Part shown: one piece after another, positions 9,800 through 19,504 of the stretch
Layout of the letters: the number at the start of each line of letters is the position of its first letter
How positions within the stretch are numbered: position 1 is the stretch's first letter
Source: a plasmid
Reading direction: 5' to 3' (one strand)
Assembly (NCBI RefSeq): GCF_056712565.1
Contig: NZ_JBWXXM010000002.1
Length of the DNA: 64,000 bases
Notes under the pieces: generated by a model
Seen by the model: only the letters and a program-made list of their open reading frames with translations
Told to the model about the DNA's origin: nothing
Database searches by the model: none
Program-made: the position numbers and the translations under genes

Positions 9800-10840
9800 A
9801 TGGTTTCCACACACATCGGCTTCCCGACTGAAACGGTCATTGTTTTCATTGCGCTTTCAGTCGGTGCCATCTTTATTGACCTGTTTATGCACCGTGATGA
9901 CAAGCCCATTTCCCTGAAGAGTGCGGCGCTCTGGTCCGTATTCTGGGTTGTGGTTGCGATGGCATTTGCCGGTTTCCTCTACATCCACCACGGTGCTGAG
10001 GTTGCCAGCCTGTTTGTAACGGGTTATGCGCTGGAGAAAGTGCTGTCGGTCGACAACCTGTTTGTCATGATGGCCATCTTCTCCTGGTTCGCCGTTCCTG
10101 ATCGTTACCGCCACCGTGTTCTCTACTGGGGGATCATTGGTGCCATCGTCTTCAGGGGCATCTTTGTCGCCATCGGTACGAGCCTGCTGAGTCTGGGGCC
10201 GTATGTTGAAGTTGTCTTCGCTATCATCGTCGCCTGGACGGCGGTCATGATGCTTAAAAGCGGTGATGACGATGATGAAATTGAGGATTATTCCCAGCAT
10301 CTGGCTTACCGCATGGTTAAACGCTTCTTCCCTATCTGGCCGAAGCTCAGAGGTCATGCTTTCCTGCTTAACCAGAAGGAAGTGGATGCCGAACTGGCGA
10401 AACCAGAAAACAGCGATGTCACCATTGGCCGTGGTAAAAAGGCGGCGCTGTATGCGACCCCTCTGTTCCTGTGTGTGGCCGTGGTTGAACTCTCGGATGT
10501 TATGTTTGCGTTTGACTCGGTACCGGCAATCATTGCCGTCAGTCGTGAACCGCTTATCGTCTATAGTGCCATGATGTTTGCTATCCTGGGCCTGCGTACT
10601 CTGTACTTTGTCCTTGAAGCACTGAAACAGTACCTGGTTCATCTGGAGAAGGCCGTTATCGTGCTGCTGTTCTTCATCGCGGCAAAACTGGGCCTGAATG
10701 CGACCGATCACATTTGGCATCATGGTTACAGCATCGCGGCGACAACCAGCCTGTATGTTGTACTGGGTGTTTTGGCGCTGGGCATTCTCGCAAGCGTCAT
10801 GTTCCCGGGCAAACCTGAATCTGAGGAAAAGGGGAGCTGA
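9800..10840 (+). CDS. terC: Tellurium resistance membrane protein TerC
   Basis: ORF 346 aa, multiple hydrophobic helices. Confidence 0.9.
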   Translation: MVSTHIGFPTETVIVFIALSVGAIFIDLFMHRDDKPISLKSAALWSVFWVVVAMAFAGFLYIHHGAEVASLFVTGYALEKVLSVDNLFVMMAIFSWFAVPDRYRHRVLYWGIIGAIVFRGIFVAIGTSLLSLGPYVEVVFAIIVAWTAVMMLKSGDDDDEIEDYSQHLAYRMVKRFFPIWPKLRGHAFLLNQKEVDAELAKPENSDVTIGRGKKAALYATPLFLCVAVVELSDVMFAFDSVPAIIAVSREPLIVYSAMMFAILGLRTLYFVLEALKQYLVHLEKAVIVLLFFIAAKLGLNATDHIWHHGYSIAATTSLYVVLGVLALGILASVMFPGKPESEEKGS

Positions 10841-12538: not shown

Positions 12539-13780
12539 GTGAATCTACAATCCGGACAAAACATACCGCTTCAGCAATCTGCGATCAGGCTGAATCTTCA
12601 GTACCCTGCCAAATCCGGCTTTAAAGGCGAACCCGATACCTGCCTCTTCCTGCTTAATGCTCAGGGAAAGGTAACCGGCGATTCTGACTTTATCTTTTAT
12701 AATAATCTGTCTTCTCCTGAAGGGGCAGTAAAGCTCGTTACCGGTTCTCAGCAGTCCAGCATTGAGATAGCACTGGATCGTGTTCCGGCGAACGTCAGTA
12801 AGATTGCGATCACCGTTGTCATTGATGGTGAAGATACTATCAGTGGGCTCAGTTTATTGAGCATTCAGGCTCCTGGTATCGCTGATTTTCAGGCTGAGAC
12901 TCAGGGCCGCAGTGAGAAAGCAATCATCCTGGGTGAAGTATATCGGCACAATGGCGCCTGGAAGCTTCGTGCGCTCGGGCAGGGTTTCAACGGTGGTCTT
13001 GAGCCTCTGGCCATTAGCTTTGGCGTTGATGTCGCACAGCCAGCTCCGCAGCCAGCAAAGCCTGCTCGTATCAGTCTGGAAAAGAAACTTGAAACCAGAT
13101 CTCCGCGCCTCGTAAGCCTCGCTAAAAAAGCCTCGGTCAGTCTCACTAAAAATAAACTGGACACCCTTGAGGCAGCGGTTGCATTTGTACTTGACGCATC
13201 CGGCTCAATGAGTGGCCAGTTCAGTAAGGGCAACGTTCAGTCTGTGCTGGACCGCATCGCCGTTCTTGCCGCCCAGTTCGACGACGACGGTGAAATGGAT
13301 GTCTGGGGATTTGGAGAGAAGCACAAGAAGTATCCAAACGTCACACTGGACAACCTGGACACATATATTCAGTCCATTCGCGGGTCTGGAAAGCGTTCAG
13401 CCTGGGAGAACCTGCCGGGACTTGGTGGGACAAACAATGAGCCCCCTGTGATGGAAGAAATTGTCGACTACTTTAAGGACTCGAAAATCCCGGTATATGT
13501 TGTATTTATTACCGATGGCGGGATCAGCAAGACCCGGGCGATTAAAGATGCAATCCGGCGTTCTGCCAACTACCCCATCTTCTGGAAGTTTGTCGGCCTG
13601 GGTGGTTCAAGCTACGGTATCCTCAAAAATCTGGATGACTTTACTGACCGCCGGGTTGATAACACCCACTTCTTTGCCATGGATGATTTCGGTTCGATCA
13701 GCGATGAAAAGTTATATGATAATTTACTGGAAGAATTCAGACCGTGGATCGATGAAACAAAAAGGTTAGGCATCCTGTAA
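12539..13780 (+). CDS. terF: TerF: TerD-domain / vWA-domain fusion protein
   Basis: ORF 413 aa starting at GTG 12539 with GGAGAG RBS; N-terminal TerD-like region, C-terminal vWA-like region (VLDASGSM). Confidence 0.8.
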
Positions 13781-13870: not shown

Positions 13871-14002
13871 ATGGACCGCATCAAGTACCTGAAATGGATA
13901 GCTGAAGAATCACCAACTGATGATGAAATCGACAACTACGATAGTATCATTAGTCGGGGCGCAGAAAGGGCCGAGAAGGTTCAGTTGTCTTTAAGACGTT
14001 AA
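13871..14002 (+). CDS. Small ORF (43 aa) with strong Shine-Dalgarno
   Basis: ATG 13871 preceded by GGGAGGAG; MDRIKYLKWIAEESPTDDEIDNYDSIISRGAERAEKVQLSLRR; ends 14 bp before the IS66 insertion. Confidence 0.3.
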   Translation: MDRIKYLKWIAEESPTDDEIDNYDSIISRGAERAEKVQLSLRR

Positions 14003-14108
14003 TATACGGGAGTTTAAATGTTCGTAAGCGTAAACTGACCGCCGTATGTAGCCATCAGACGAGAATTGGTAACTTAGACGCCCATCTGATATAGACGGAC
14101 ATCTAAGT

Positions 14109-14534
14109 ATGGAATTACAGGACTGGCGAAAAGAACCTCGTAAAAACTATTCGAATGAATTCAAACTTCGTATGGTGGAACTGGCATCACAACCTGGAGC
14201 TTGTGTTGCACAGATTGCACGTGAAAATGGCGTCAATGATAATGTTATTTTCAAATGGCTCAGGCTCTGGCAGAACGAAGGGCGTGTTTCGCGGCGTCTT
14301 CCGGTAACGACCTCTTCTGACACTGGCGTTGAATTATTACCTGTAGAAATAACGCCGGATGAGCAGAAAGAACCTGTGGCGGCCATTGCGCCGTCTTTAT
14401 CCACTTCCACTCAGACCAGAGTCAGTGCCAGTTCCTGCAAGGTGGAATTCCGTCACGGTAACATGACGCTGGAAAATCCATCGCCAGAGCTGCTCACGGT
14501 GTTGATCCGTGAACTGACCGGGAGGGGAAGATGA
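14109..14534 (+). CDS. IS66-family accessory protein (orf1)
   Basis: ORF 141 aa; position and sequence typical of IS66 orf1. Confidence 0.85.
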   Translation: MELQDWRKEPRKNYSNEFKLRMVELASQPGACVAQIARENGVNDNVIFKWLRLWQNEGRVSRRLPVTTSSDTGVELLPVEITPDEQKEPVAAIAPSLSTSTQTRVSASSCKVEFRHGNMTLENPSPELLTVLIRELTGRGR

Positions 14535-14881
14535 TCTCACTCCCATCAGGTACCCGTATCTGGCTCGTTGCCGGCGTTACCGATATGCGTAAATCCTTCA
14601 ACGGACTGGGAGAACAGGTACAACATGTGCTGAATGATAATCCCTTCTCCGGTCACCTGTTTATCTTCCGTGGCCGACGGGGTGACACCGTCAAAATTCT
14701 TTGGGCTGATGCTGATGGTCTGTGCCTGTTCACCAAACGCCTGGAGGAAGGCCAGTTTATCTGGCCTGCGGTACGTGACGGCAAGGTATCCATTACCCGT
14801 TCGCAACTGGCAATGCTCCTCGATAAGCTGGACTGGCGTCAGCCAAAAACATCCAGCCGTAACTCACTGACAATGTTGTAA
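14531..14881 (+). CDS. IS66-family orf2 protein
   Basis: ORF 116 aa overlapping orf1 stop; typical IS66 TnpB. Confidence 0.85.
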   Translation: MISLPSGTRIWLVAGVTDMRKSFNGLGEQVQHVLNDNPFSGHLFIFRGRRGDTVKILWADADGLCLFTKRLEEGQFIWPAVRDGKVSITRSQLAMLLDKLDWRQPKTSSRNSLTML

Positions 14882-14911
14882 AAAACTCCTGACCGCATTA
14901 TAAAAACGGTC

Positions 14912-16525
14912 ATGAGTCAGAAATACCTCATTCGCATCGCAGAGCTGGAAAGGTTGCTCTCTGAGCAGGCTGAAGCCCTCCGTCAGAAAGACCAGCAACT
15001 GAGTCTGGTTGAAGAGACGGAAGCCTTCCTGCGCTCTGCACTGACACGTGCCGAAGAAAAGATCGAAGAAGATGAACGGGAAATAGAACATCTGCGGGCT
15101 CAGATAGAAAAACTGCGCCGGATGCTGTTCGGTACCCGTTCTGAAAAACTGCGTCGTGAAGTTGAACTGGCTGAGGCTCTGCTGAAACAACGTGAACAGG
15201 ACAGCGATCGTTACAGTGGGCGGGAAGACGATCCTCAGGTTCCCCGCCAGTTGCGACAGTCGCGCCATCGTCGTCCGTTACCGGCACACCTTCCCCGTGA
15301 AATACACCGCCTGGAGCCAGAAGAAAGCTGTTGCCCGGAGTGTGGCGGTGAGCTGGATTATCTGGGGGAAGTCAGCGCTGAACAGCTGGAACTGGTGAGC
15401 AGTGCCCTGAAAGTGATCCGCACAGAACGGGTAAAAAAAGCCTGTACAAAATGTGACTGTATTGTTGAAGCACCGGCGCCGTCCCGCCCGATAGAGCGTG
15501 GTATCGCGGGCCCCGGATTACTTGCCCGCGTGTTAACGGGAAAATACTGCGAACATCTGCCACTGTATCGTCAGAGTGAAATCTTTGCCCGCCAGGGTGT
15601 CGAACTGAGCCGGGCCTTACTCTCCAACTGGGTTGACGCGTGCTGCCAGTTAATGACACCGGTGAATGATGCCCTGTACCGTTATGTAATGAACACCCGC
15701 AAGGTTCACACTGATGACACACCGGTAAAGGTACTGGCACCGGGTCAGAAAAAGGCGAAAACAGGGCGTATCTGGACGTATGTCCGGGATGATCGCAATG
15801 TGGGTTCGTCATCTCCTCCAGCGGTCTGGTTCGCGTACTCGCCGAACCGGCAGGGGAAACACCCGGAGCAACACCTCCGCCCCTTCCGGGGTATCCTGCA
15901 GGCGGATGCGTTCACAGGTTACGACAGGTTGTTCAGTGCAGAACGTGAAGGTGGTGCACTGACAGAAGTTGCGTGCTGGGCCCATGCCCGGCGAAAAATC
16001 CACGATGTATACATCAGCAGCAAAAGTGCGACGGCAGAAGAAGCCCTGAAGCGAATCAGTGAACTGTACGCCATCGAGGATGAAATACGGGGATTACCGG
16101 AGTCAGAGCGTCTTGCCGTCAGGCAGCAGCGAAGCAAAGTGTTACTGACGTCGCTGCATGAATGGATGGTGGAGAAGAATGGTACGCTGTCGAAAAAATC
16201 CAGACTGGGCGAAGCGTTCAGCTATGTACTGAATCAGTGGGATGCCCTCTGTTATTACAGTGATGACGGTCTGGCGGAGGCGGATAATAATGCTGCGGAA
16301 AGAGCGCTTCGTGCAGTCTGTCTCGGAAAGAAAAACTTTATGTTCTTTGGCAGCGATCACGGCGGCGAGCGTGGAGCACTGTTGTACGGGCTGATCGGCA
16401 CCTGCCGTCTGAACGGTATCGATCCGGAAGCGTATCTGCGCCATATCCTGAGCGTACTGCCGGAATGGCCTTCCAACCGAGTTGATGAACTCCTGCCATG
16501 GAACGTAGTACTCACCAATAAATAA
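14912..16525 (+). CDS. IS66-family transposase
   Basis: ORF 537 aa; leucine-zipper N-terminus, CPECGG zinc motif, conserved DNNAAERALR-type motif. Confidence 0.9.
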   Translation: MSQKYLIRIAELERLLSEQAEALRQKDQQLSLVEETEAFLRSALTRAEEKIEEDEREIEHLRAQIEKLRRMLFGTRSEKLRREVELAEALLKQREQDSDRYSGREDDPQVPRQLRQSRHRRPLPAHLPREIHRLEPEESCCPECGGELDYLGEVSAEQLELVSSALKVIRTERVKKACTKCDCIVEAPAPSRPIERGIAGPGLLARVLTGKYCEHLPLYRQSEIFARQGVELSRALLSNWVDACCQLMTPVNDALYRYVMNTRKVHTDDTPVKVLAPGQKKAKTGRIWTYVRDDRNVGSSSPPAVWFAYSPNRQGKHPEQHLRPFRGILQADAFTGYDRLFSAEREGGALTEVACWAHARRKIHDVYISSKSATAEEALKRISELYAIEDEIRGLPESERLAVRQQRSKVLLTSLHEWMVEKNGTLSKKSRLGEAFSYVLNQWDALCYYSDDGLAEADNNAAERALRAVCLGKKNFMFFGSDHGGERGALLYGLIGTCRLNGIDPEAYLRHILSVLPEWPSNRVDELLPWNVVLTNK

Positions 16526-16882
16526 GCGTCAATACGGTGCTCCGTTGACGCTTACAAATGTTCGCAGAAATCAAAGATAATTATTCGTTAGGTGGATAAA
16601 GAAAGGTTGCCATTACCAGCTTTCGACGAGTCGAAAATAAAAACCTTATTTATAGTGACAGGGAGTATGAGCTGACGCTTGCCAATGGAACAATAATTAA
16701 AAATGTACTTAGAAAAGAAGAGTGGGAACTGTTAGAAAGCAATTCAATTAAGGTTATATTATAACGAAAATATATTTACAGTTTTGGATAGGTTTCAAAC
16801 GAGTCCGGACATTTGTACCTGAAGTATCTGACATTACAGTTAAGTGACGATTATGCCAGCACGTCTGTTGCTGGCAGCTTAG

Positions 16883-17164
16883 CTATCGGTCTAAAAGCTG
16901 ATCCATTAATAATTCTTCGTAAAGCCCAGAGGTATCGGGCTTTATTACAATATCCGTTATTTCGAAGCGTTCAAGTACAAATTGCAGATATTCCGGAGTA
17001 ACGTAGTAGGGATCAGGTTCAGCCAGATTAGTATAGAGTGGGTCTTCTGCTGCATTAATGTCATAATCAATGCACATATGAAACCACTGCAAAGGTGGAT
17101 CCCAGCCTAACATCACCTGAACAATTCCCTGATTGCTTTTCACCTCATACCAGTGCTGGCTCAT
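16883..17164 (-). CDS. Hypothetical protein (93 aa)
   Basis: ORF only; AT-rich region; no recognisable motif. Confidence 0.3.
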   Translation of the reverse strand: MSQHWYEVKSNQGIVQVMLGWDPPLQWFHMCIDYDINAAEDPLYTNLAEPDPYYVTPEYLQFVLERFEITDIVIKPDTSGLYEELLMDQLLDR

Positions 17165-17213
17165 ACTTAGTCCTTAAGAAAATTTGTCATCGGAAAATAA
17201 CACGAAGCCTGCA

Positions 17214-17405
17214 TCATCGAGGCGCATAACCTTCTTCCCTTAACGCCTGTTGTAATTTATCAACTGCGCTTTTCATTACCCAGGCTTCTTCGTCACTCAC
17301 AGCACAACCACGTAGATCGCTCCAGCTCAGACGTTTAACAAATTGAGCAAGGGCCATAGTTTCGTTCTCATCAAGCCGCAAACTCAGTGTCTCAATACCT
17401 TCCAC
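17214..17405 (-). CDS. Hypothetical small protein (63 aa)
   Basis: ORF only. Confidence 0.25.
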   Translation of the reverse strand: MEGIETLSLRLDENETMALAQFVKRLSWSDLRGCAVSDEEAWVMKSAVDKLQQALREEGYAPR

Positions 17406-17496
17406 AATCTAACCTCCCTTATAATGAAAAATGGCGCTTTACTTCTGACCAGATGCCGAAGCCTTGAATGCAGCCGGAACTGTCGTTGTTTCTACT

Positions 17497-17868
17497 TTAC
17501 AGAAATGGAATTAAAAAGTGGTGATGCTGGGCACGTTTCTTTTCCAGCCGGGGTTTAAGCCAGAGCTGAAACTCATTCAACTTCTCAGCAGCCAAAACCG
17601 CTTCAACGGGGAAAACTTTATATTTACCCTGTTGCTGAGGTTCACCCAGCCATCGCCTGATGGCTCCGTCAGTCCATAAACGAGTCTCTTTTAGCCTAGT
17701 TACAGTGACCCATTTTCTGGACCATTCATCAAATTGTCGCTGGCGATCCCGATAACGTTGTTCTTCCTGCTGCCGAAGCCACTCGCGATCAACAGCAAAT
17801 TTTCGGTATCCAACAAAGAGCCCTTGTACTTTGGCCATGTCATATTCCGGTTGCTTAGAGTTACTCAT
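17497..17868 (-). CDS. Hypothetical protein (123 aa)
   Basis: ORF only, ATG at 17866-17868. Confidence 0.35.
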   Translation of the reverse strand: MSNSKQPEYDMAKVQGLFVGYRKFAVDREWLRQQEEQRYRDRQRQFDEWSRKWVTVTRLKETRLWTDGAIRRWLGEPQQQGKYKVFPVEAVLAAEKLNEFQLWLKPRLEKKRAQHHHFLIPFL

Positions 17869-18171
17869 TCAACCAAAACCTAAACGTCGATACAAACTCT
17901 GTTTCATAACCAGGGTTTTATCCTTACCGCGACAGTAAGTAACAGGGGCTGCATAAACCGGTCATTTAGTCCGTTATGCAAAAATTATTGAGGATCCGGG
18001 CTGTTAAACTGTTCTTCCTCTTTCGCTTCCGGTGAAAAGGGGAGGTGTCACCCTGCGAGCCCGTGTAGTGAAAGGGATTCGTCGTAATACAGGCCAAAGG
18101 CTAACATGACCGCAAAGGACGCCCGGGCGACCGGATACCTGCCGGGTTGTGCGATGTAAAATCCGGAAGCA

Positions 18172-18570
18172 GTGATAACACAAACAGGCCCCTACAGCGT
18201 AAGGATTGTGATGGACGATAAAGAGCAGTTTACGAATCTTGTGGCAAAGCATGCCTCCGGACTCACCGAAGAGCAGCTGGCCGGGTACGATGCCTGTTCC
18301 CTGGATGGTGAATGCGTCACGCCTTCATACGAGGTTTTCCGGGGGTATCGTACCCGCCACACACTGGATGAATTTCTGGAGATGGCCATATCGCTGAATG
18401 CCATCCACCCGGATGAATATTTAACGGATATGCTGCTGAAGCCTCATGAGGTGATCGGCGCTCTGGCCGATGAAGGCGACCAGCTGAACAACGCCACCCC
18501 GGTTTATTTCTTTCCGGATACCGGCGTCTATGCAGCGGCCGTTAGTGAAACCCGGGTGCTCGATGCCTAG
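18172..18570 (+). CDS. Hypothetical protein (132 aa)
   Basis: ORF only; alternative start MDDKEQF at 18211. Confidence 0.35.
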   Translation: MITQTGPYSVRIVMDDKEQFTNLVAKHASGLTEEQLAGYDACSLDGECVTPSYEVFRGYRTRHTLDEFLEMAISLNAIHPDEYLTDMLLKPHEVIGALADEGDQLNNATPVYFFPDTGVYAAAVSETRVLDA

Positions 18571-18671
18571 CTTTGCTGGCCATGCTACCCGGCGAACTGG
18601 TAACGCGGCCGTTGGAATTGCACCGGCCGGATACGAATTTAACCGATCCCGTGGCGGGAAGGCTATCAGAG

Positions 18672-18924
18672 TTGCATGTCCTCATCCCTCAAGCCCCCTG
18701 CCAGGCCCCAACGTGCTGTCAGGCTTCGCCTGATTCCCGATCTGCGCCGATACTTCAGCCGATAACTTTTTGTTTTCTTTTTATTTTCTTCCCATTTCCT
18801 CAAAAATCGCGGGCGGCGTGGACAGGGCACCATTGCCGCATGTGGGGTCTTAATAAGGGCAGGGTGGTCAGTTTTGCTCGATGCCATGGGTAGGCCCTCC
18901 CCTTCATGGGATGAGGACATGCAA
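18672..18924. repeat. Pair of 17-bp perfect inverted repeats bracketing about 220 bp
   Basis: TTGCATGTCCTCATCCC at 18672-18688 and its exact reverse complement at 18908-18924. Confidence 0.5.
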
Positions 18925-19076
18925 GTAAGCTAACTATCTGAAATGACGAAGGTTCATTTGGTGAATGTCGCTTCATATTAATGTTGTGTCACTTATGATC
19001 GTATGTAGCTGGTTGCAAAGAGGAGCGATGAGACAATAAAGTTGTATCGCTAACAAGATTTATGCTGCCACATAGT

Positions 19077-19177
19077 AACAGCCTAAAAGTTGTACGCCCT
19101 ATTTAACAGCTTTTAGGCTGTTAATTTGATATTACAGCTTTTAGGGTGTATGTTTAGGAAACAGCCTGCAAGGTGTA
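19077..19177. promoter_or_regulatory. Putative hipBA promoter/operator region with repeated ACAGC(C/T)T half-sites
   Basis: Perfect 13-bp IR AACAGCCTAAAAG (19077-19089) / CTTTTAGGCTGTT (19110-19122) plus two related copies before the hipB ATG at 19204. Confidence 0.35.
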
Positions 19178-19203
19178 TCAGAGGAAACTACTGAGGCCAG
19201 CTT

Positions 19204-19500
19204 ATGATCAATAATGATTACCCGTTAAACACGCTCAACCAGCTGCGTCCCTTGCTCATTGGTTTTCGCAAGGCGAATGGCCTGACGCAAAAAGACCTGT
19301 CCGAAAGGTTAGGCGTCACTCAACAGACATACTCACGTCTGGAAGCCAACCCTGCCAGTGCGAGCATTGAACGGCTATTCAAGGTGTTTTCCATCCTGGG
19401 CGTAAAAATCAGCTTCTCCTCGGCAACCACCTCTTCAGAGAGGAAGCAGACGGAAGAAATGCTTAAATCAAACTCACCTGCACGACAGGAGGATTGGTAA
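19204..19500 (+). CDS. hipB: HipB-like HTH (XRE-family) antitoxin
   Basis: ORF 98 aa; HTH segment (LTQKDLSERLGVTQQTYSRLE); immediately upstream of hipA with 4-nt gap. Confidence 0.75.
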   Translation: MINNDYPLNTLNQLRPLLIGFRKANGLTQKDLSERLGVTQQTYSRLEANPASASIERLFKVFSILGVKISFSSATTSSERKQTEEMLKSNSPARQEDW

Positions 19501-19504
19501 CGAT

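Follow-up and report, generated by a model that had tools for sequence, protein, structure and literature searches.

Among the main vehicles of mcr and extended-spectrum beta-lactamase resistance genes are the IncHI2 plasmids, much of whose backbone is still labelled 'hypothetical'. Here we examine a piece of such backbone in a 64,000-nucleotide (nt) stretch of plasmid DNA (NCBI RefSeq assembly GCF_056712565.1, contig NZ_JBWXXM010000002.1; hereafter the window, in which all coordinates are given unless another locus is named), where four small open reading frames (ORFs), numbered ORF1 to ORF4 from left to right, lie between an IS66-family insertion sequence (IS) and the toxin-antitoxin (TA) genes hipBA.

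Several described systems come close to this locus. Type II TA modules such as HipBA share with it the arrangement of small adjacent plasmid genes beside a real TA locus, one of them encoding a putative DNA binder; unlike such modules, however, the genes described here have no conserved pairing and no toxin or antitoxin domain, and one of them has been lost where its neighbour was kept. ArdA, ArdB/KlcA and the anti-defence islands of plasmid leading regions likewise comprise small acidic plasmid proteins, and some relatives of the proteins studied here are encoded near an antirestriction gene, but no family or fold match connects the two and our locus adjoins the ter operon. At the level of single proteins, DUF7706 (PF24806) resembles ORF2 in size and, through its pOXA-48 and IncN members, in plasmid habitat, with no structural difference between them. 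Finally, the core predicted for ORF3 would have the strand-helix-turn-helix-hairpin-helix order of the MerR N-terminal, excisionase and XPA C-terminal folds, which form one structural superfamily in SCOP. The region is in our view best explained, with moderate confidence, as ST3-type IncHI2 backbone carrying four separate, genuine small genes that do not form a module, ORF3 being probably regulator-like and the other three encoding acidic proteins that would act by binding.

Four conserved genes in the IncHI2 backbone

ORF calling returned 16883-17164 (minus strand, 93 amino acids (aa)), 17214-17405 (minus, 63 aa), 17497-17868 (minus, 123 aa) and 18172-18570 (plus, 132 aa), reproducing the three minus-strand ORFs and one plus-strand ORF that an earlier note on this DNA had placed between IS66 and hipBA; the flanks were also as it described, with the IS66-family element at 14024-16555 and hipBA at 19204-20830. 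Its lengths of 93 and 63 aa stand, while the other two shorten: by homologue alignment and RefSeq annotation ORF3 starts at 17838 and is 113 aa long, the 123-aa reading from 17868 being an over-extension, and homologue alignment places the start of ORF4 at the ATG at 18211, giving 130 aa in every intact homologue. ORFs are frequent here (71 of at least 40 aa in 9 kb), and since those of this size are common by chance, the case for genes rests on conservation and not on the existence of the frames.

With the ter operon on one side and hipBA on the other, this interval of the window is ST3-type IncHI2 plasmid backbone. Positions 16556-19300 differ from the Salmonella plasmid pSTM6-275 (IncHI2A, MOBH) at one base over 2,745 nt, and the block is found at 99% identity or more in about 650 PLSDB plasmids and, as a whole, in about 240 complete Escherichia coli records. 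The earlier note had named absence from related plasmids as grounds for giving these ORFs up, and their presence in some 650 PLSDB plasmids says the opposite. Its description of them as orphans with no recognisable motifs also has to be dropped, as ORF2 belongs to DUF7706 and each ORF has homologues in roughly 1,300-2,700 plasmid records (in PLSDB, 1,304 for ORF1, 2,745 for ORF2, 1,617 for ORF3 and 1,451 for ORF4).

Substitution patterns between lineages indicate that the ORFs are under purifying selection. Between the window's ST3 copy and ST1/R478-like copies, ORF3 shows 9 synonymous and 2 non-synonymous changes, with a ratio of non-synonymous to synonymous rates (dN/dS) of 0.057, and ORF4 shows 7 synonymous and 0 non-synonymous changes, the flanking DNA being about 7% diverged; against the IncHI1B copy, the dN/dS of ORF4 is 0.14. 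For ORF2 the ST3-ST1 comparison gives 3 synonymous and 4 non-synonymous changes (dN/dS 0.35 on few sites), and for ORF1 the comparison with an IncX4 homologue gives a dN of 0.12 with dS saturated. RefSeq annotates all four ORFs as coding sequences, and good Shine-Dalgarno sequences precede three of them: AAGGA 7 nt before the ATG of ORF1, an especially strong AAGGGAGG at ORF2, and AAGGA before the ATG of ORF4 at 18211.

The opposite reading, that the ORFs are chance frames or decayed pseudogenes in AT-rich junk DNA, can point to the many spurious ORFs of similar size close by, to the spacer at 16556-16882, which is truly non-coding debris, and to ORF4, which is a fresh pseudogene in the window. 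We nevertheless put its probability next to nil in view of protein conservation across genera down to 38-55% identity, an excess of synonymous changes, the Shine-Dalgarno sites, a Pfam family and confident structure models; for ORF1 to ORF3 and the intact allele of ORF4 it is already refuted. Judged by these sequence comparisons, the four ORFs are genuine, conserved protein-coding genes with settled boundaries, and the earlier doubt on this point is settled: conservation, selection and RefSeq annotation all speak for real genes. The 'low-GC tract' in which they were said to sit is real for the spacer (16556-16882, 35.8% GC) and for ORF1 (41.8%), but not for ORF2 and ORF3 (about 47%) or ORF4 (55.2%); the region as a whole has 45.9% GC against 50.2% for the window. 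Rfam, promoter and terminator scans of the region returned nothing meaningful, and a literature search for these genes, by accession number and in the pOXA-48 transposon sequencing (Tn-seq) paper, found nothing.

Independent distributions and a cargo slot in ST1

Comparison with ST1 plasmids separates the genes from one another. ST1 IncHI2 keeps ORF2 and ORF3 at 95% identity and ORF4 at 94%, but retains only the first ~18 codons of ORF1, with a 151-aa gene in its place, and more than 400 ST1 plasmids lack ORF1 yet carry ORF2 and ORF3. Outside IncHI2, no fixed partner was found among the four families: the small-plasmid homologues of ORF1 and the IncL/IncN/IncFIB homologues of ORF2 have differing neighbours, and tblastn of all four proteins against loci with ORF3 homologues (elements of Xenorhabdus, Vibrio and Brenneria) found ORF3 alone. 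On these distributions, which are independent of each other, the four genes are not a module. The 151-aa gene, intact in ST1, has a counterpart of sorts in the window, where a 43-aa ORF following terF (13871-14002) shares only its first 15 codons; homology between ST3 and ST1 is lost at 13916 and picked up again at 17112. The pattern suggests that both ORF1 and the 151-aa gene were present in an ancestor and that two reciprocal deletions or replacements followed.

The same comparison delimits the places where ST1 carries additional DNA. Homology over ORF2-ORF3 extends as far as 17859 and, for ORF4, starts again at 17896, and ST1 has inserts of ~4.85 kb between ORF3 and ORF4, that is, at the divergent intergenic region 17839-18210 of the window, and of ~3.5 kb between ORF4 and hipB. 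Encoded in the first of these are a UvrD-like helicase (GajB-like, 2.5e-52) and a CoiA_N-like 328-aa protein (ST1 IncHI2 loci L009 and L010, with cargo in the ter-hipBA interval at 6366-9115 and 6965-9987, respectively), and in the second a trypsin-like protease and BnzA/BnzB-like Bunzi proteins (BnzB 6.5e-53). By gene content, the ter-hipBA interval is thus a defence-cargo hotspot in ST1 that is empty in the window's lineage, and since the defence-like cargo of ST1 lies between these genes, the four genes form the conserved frame of a variable slot.

These observations bear directly on whether ORF3-ORF2 or ORF2-ORF1 could be an unannotated type II TA module next to hipBA. In favour of this stand the small size of the genes, their adjacency on one strand with only 91 and 49 bp between them, the encoding of a basic putative DNA binder beside acidic proteins, and the TA-rich neighbourhoods of some homologues; however, searches of Pfam, NCBIfam and PADLOC at E<=1 matched no TA family, outside IncHI2 the partners are not found together, ORF1 is deleted in the ST1 plasmids that keep ORF2 and ORF3, the neighbours are left intact despite the truncation of ORF4 in the window, and an abundant 63-aa three-helix acidic protein (ORF2, below) is an unlikely toxin. 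A gene pair conserved across different replicons, as a TA module should be, was not found for these four. We therefore consider a TA module very unlikely, as the distributions differ and there are neither fixed partners nor TA domains, and hipBA is a unit separate from the four-gene set. The earlier note had seen in this setting a typical place for unannotated TA or anti-defence genes: the variable accessory region is borne out by the defence-like cargo of ST1, while a TA module, with no pairing and no TA match, is not.

ORF3, a probable DNA-binding protein

ORF3 (17497-17838, minus strand) encodes a basic protein (isoelectric point (pI) 10.3) with a predicted winged-helix core at about residues 43-86, preceded by a long helix. 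Its AlphaFold model, with a predicted local distance difference test score (pLDDT) of 86 from a 51-sequence alignment, consists in order of a hairpin (6-16), a long helix (18-42), a strand, two helices, a hairpin (68-77) and two helices. The predicted core superposes on XPA/Rad14, pSK1 Par, TorI, AlpA-type Xis, MerR, GlnR/TnrA, RacA and RdfS, and Pukovnik Xis is also among its structural neighbours. By sequence, ORF3 falls outside the curated MerR, HTH_17, Phage_AlpA and XPA_C profiles, and a Pfam search with ORF3 and 50 relatives matched no family; one distant relative gave a weak XPA_C match (E=6e-4) below the cutoff. The family is small, with 28 clusters in a word-indexed search; an exhaustive profile search through 1.84 billion proteins yielded only 84 cluster representatives at E<=1e-3.

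All ORF3-family contexts that we examined are plasmid or integrative and conjugative element (ICE) backbone. KfrA_N proteins are twice adjacent and a TraI_2 (MOBH) relaxase is twice near; elsewhere the neighbours include ParAB/ParM, integrases and type IV secretion system genes. Fusion proteins are found among a few distant relatives, the partner being an MmcB-like nuclease domain or, weakly, HNH or XPA_C. These rare nuclease-type fusions and the high pI are in line with the predicted activity, and from its modelled structure ORF3 is probably a DNA-binding protein. Most likely it would be a small regulatory or architectural factor of the element, and it may control ORF2 and ORF1, which lie behind it in the same orientation, spaced by 91 and 49 bp, in a putative operon. 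No convincing sigma-70 promoter match was found in 17839-18210.

An alternative is that ORF3 is not a transcription regulator but an excisionase-like recombination-directionality factor or a relaxosome accessory factor of MOBH-type elements. TorI, AlpA-type Xis, Pukovnik Xis and RdfS among its structural neighbours would fit such a role, as would the ICE homologues that lie 1-4 genes from a TraI_2 relaxase gene, the two loci near integrase genes and the typing of IncHI2 itself as MOBH. We regard this as unlikely, and retain the small regulator or architectural factor as the preferred role for ORF3.

Other candidate relationships of ORF3 were tried and rejected. A JetB/MukE-like PADLOC match (E=6.6e-5, 39 residues) covers no more than a winged helix and does not amount to Wadjet membership, and matches to Teneurin/Tox-GHH and PadR had E>=1 and were not reproducible. 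The most conserved part of ORF3 has in common with Had1 (anti-Hachiman), a family in which PDB 8tto was placed via phage tblastn and the preprint of Yirmiya et al., the motif [LV]WT[DN]G.AIR[RK][WY].G[EQ] (HMMER E=0.25). Homology over the full 53-aa length of Had1 was not found, and the link was rejected because hhalign probability was only 1.3% and 6.1% in two alignment pairings, over 16-18 aligned columns. This motif had been the sole lead towards an anti-defence role.

The acidic proteins ORF1, ORF2 and ORF4

ORF2 (17214-17405, minus strand, GTG start) encodes a 63-aa protein of pI 4.6 that matches PF24806 over positions 7-63 of 63 (E=1.1e-25; score 89.9 bits, cutoff 27), and its RefSeq name is 'DUF7706 family protein'. 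Plasmids with relatives at 46-71% identity include IncL (pOXA-48), IncN and IncFIB types, among others, and the neighbours differ each time. The pOXA-48 member was found to be abundant by matrix-assisted laser desorption/ionization time-of-flight (MALDI-TOF) analysis and proteomics (bioRxiv 10.64898/2026.07.12.738056), and the family is therefore expressed in cells; as it has no known function, however, membership says nothing on the mechanism of ORF2.

ORF1 (16883-17164, minus strand; RefSeq WP_000077926.1) encodes a 93-aa protein of pI 4.05, with homologues of 93 aa at 68-80% identity and others at 38-42% on small plasmids. An antirestriction gene lies near one relative, which is part of an array of small genes, and a CcgAII gene near another; a contig scan for ORF1 relatives, which used overly specific peptide patterns, returned only a 358-bp contaminant contig. 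Neither ORF1 nor ORF4 matched anything in Pfam, NCBIfam, PHROGs or PADLOC. ORF4, ORF1 and ORF2 were modelled together as a linker-joined fusion with chimeric alignment rows, and within this fusion ORF1 is predicted to form a three-strand meander with two helices (pLDDT ~80), ORF2 three helices and ORF4 an alpha/beta domain (pLDDT ~76). A Foldseek search against PDB for folds of these three proteins gave nothing below E=1.

ORF4 (18211-18603, plus strand) normally encodes a 130-aa acidic protein of pI 4.26. Its occurrence is limited to IncHI2, IncHI1B and a handful of further enterobacterial plasmids, and on a MOBF plasmid the gene for a remote relative is the last of a long unidirectional array of small genes. 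In the window, the gene is interrupted by the sole difference from pSTM6-275, a G>A change at 18569 that turns TGG into TAG (18568-18570) and cuts the product to 119 aa. No motif of the family is better conserved than the tail lost here, WLCWPCYPANW (WLxWPCYPxNW in the family), which is retained in 130-aa homologues that reach down to 42-53% identity and kept even at 42%. At least 1,000 contigs encode exactly the intact protein, and 1,131 PLSDB records contain the gene at full length with at least 99% identity, against 3 contigs for exactly the 119-aa product. We read the TAG, from these comparisons, as a recent, rare mutation that inactivates or weakens ORF4. With ORF4 knocked out here and ORF1 deleted in ST1, none of the four genes is essential to the plasmid.

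ORF1, ORF2 and ORF4 are small acidic cytoplasmic proteins that carry no enzymatic motif and would act by binding other macromolecules, presumably as plasmid 'housekeeping' or host-interaction factors. A more specific proposal is that they are antirestriction, anti-defence or other host-manipulating factors aiding plasmid establishment. All three are small and acidic (pI 4.0-4.6) and are carried on mobile elements only, relatives of ORF1 lie in small-gene arrays and near antirestriction or CcgAII genes, the remote ORF4 relative stands at the end of such an array on its MOBF plasmid, and the interval is a defence-cargo slot in ST1. On the other hand, no antirestriction or anti-defence family or structure was matched, and ORF1 and ORF4 have been lost in successful lineages without obvious consequence. 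Moreover, as the flanking genes, read with oriT itself unmapped, are ter genes and not oriT or transfer genes, the locus is not a leading region. The evidence for an anti-defence role is circumstantial, and we give it a low probability. Also doubtful, to our mind, is a bolder version in which ORF3 represents an undescribed family of small winged-helix DNA-binding proteins that is specific to conjugative plasmids and ICEs and sits beside cargo or defence slots, with ORF1, ORF2 and ORF4 as new effectors against defence or silencing during establishment. We keep to the reading of four separate genes: they are ordinary conserved hypothetical genes, and nothing points to a new kind of system.

Flanking elements

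On one side, ter and ter-associated genes fill the flanking 24 kb, among them terF (12539-13780), which encodes a VWA-domain protein and is followed by the 43-aa ORF; on the other side lie hipB/hipA and accessory genes. The IS66-family element (14024-16555, plus strand), which bounds the region on the left, contains three ORFs (141, 116 and 537 aa), has the termini GTAAGCG...CGCTTAC and is flanked by an 8-bp target duplication, AAATGTTC, at 14016-14023 and 16556-16563. Neither pSTM6-275 nor the best-matching PLSDB and complete E. coli records have an IS at the 14016-14023 site, and the element is therefore a private insertion that makes the window a rare variant. It ends 319 bp past the ORF1 stop and interrupts no intact gene. 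The AT-rich non-coding spacer between them (16564-16882, downstream of ORF1) has only short broken ORFs and is confined to ST3-type IncHI2 records (n=726); a search for its intact ancestor found none.

Several features were observed towards and beyond hipBA. A perfect 17-nt inverted repeat, TTGCATGTCCTCATCCC / GGGATGAGGACATGCAA at 18672-18688 / 18908-18924, brackets 219 nt of the GC-rich DNA that separates ORF4 from hipB. The ST3-ST1 homology stops exactly at the outer edge of the repeat (18924), where ST1 has extra cargo, and the repeat may represent either a miniature element or the breakpoint of a recombination. Just upstream of hipB, at 19071-19149, are repeated palindromes of the form ACAGC(C/T)TTTAGG(C/G)TGT, which are likely to be HipB operator sites. 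Downstream of hipA, at 20891-22437, small ORFs (68 and 136 aa) and one of 271 aa encode hypothetical proteins that part of the IncHI2 lineage conserves, whereas in pSTM6-275 their place is taken by resistance genes.

Implications

Our analysis provides correct boundaries for four IncHI2 genes that are under selection yet individually dispensable and that flank the slot holding defence-like cargo in ST1; one of them encodes a probable DNA-binding protein whose family Pfam lacks. As annotation, these gains are modest. If, however, the acidic proteins do turn out to be establishment or anti-defence factors, they may have a bearing on the host range of IncHI2 plasmids.
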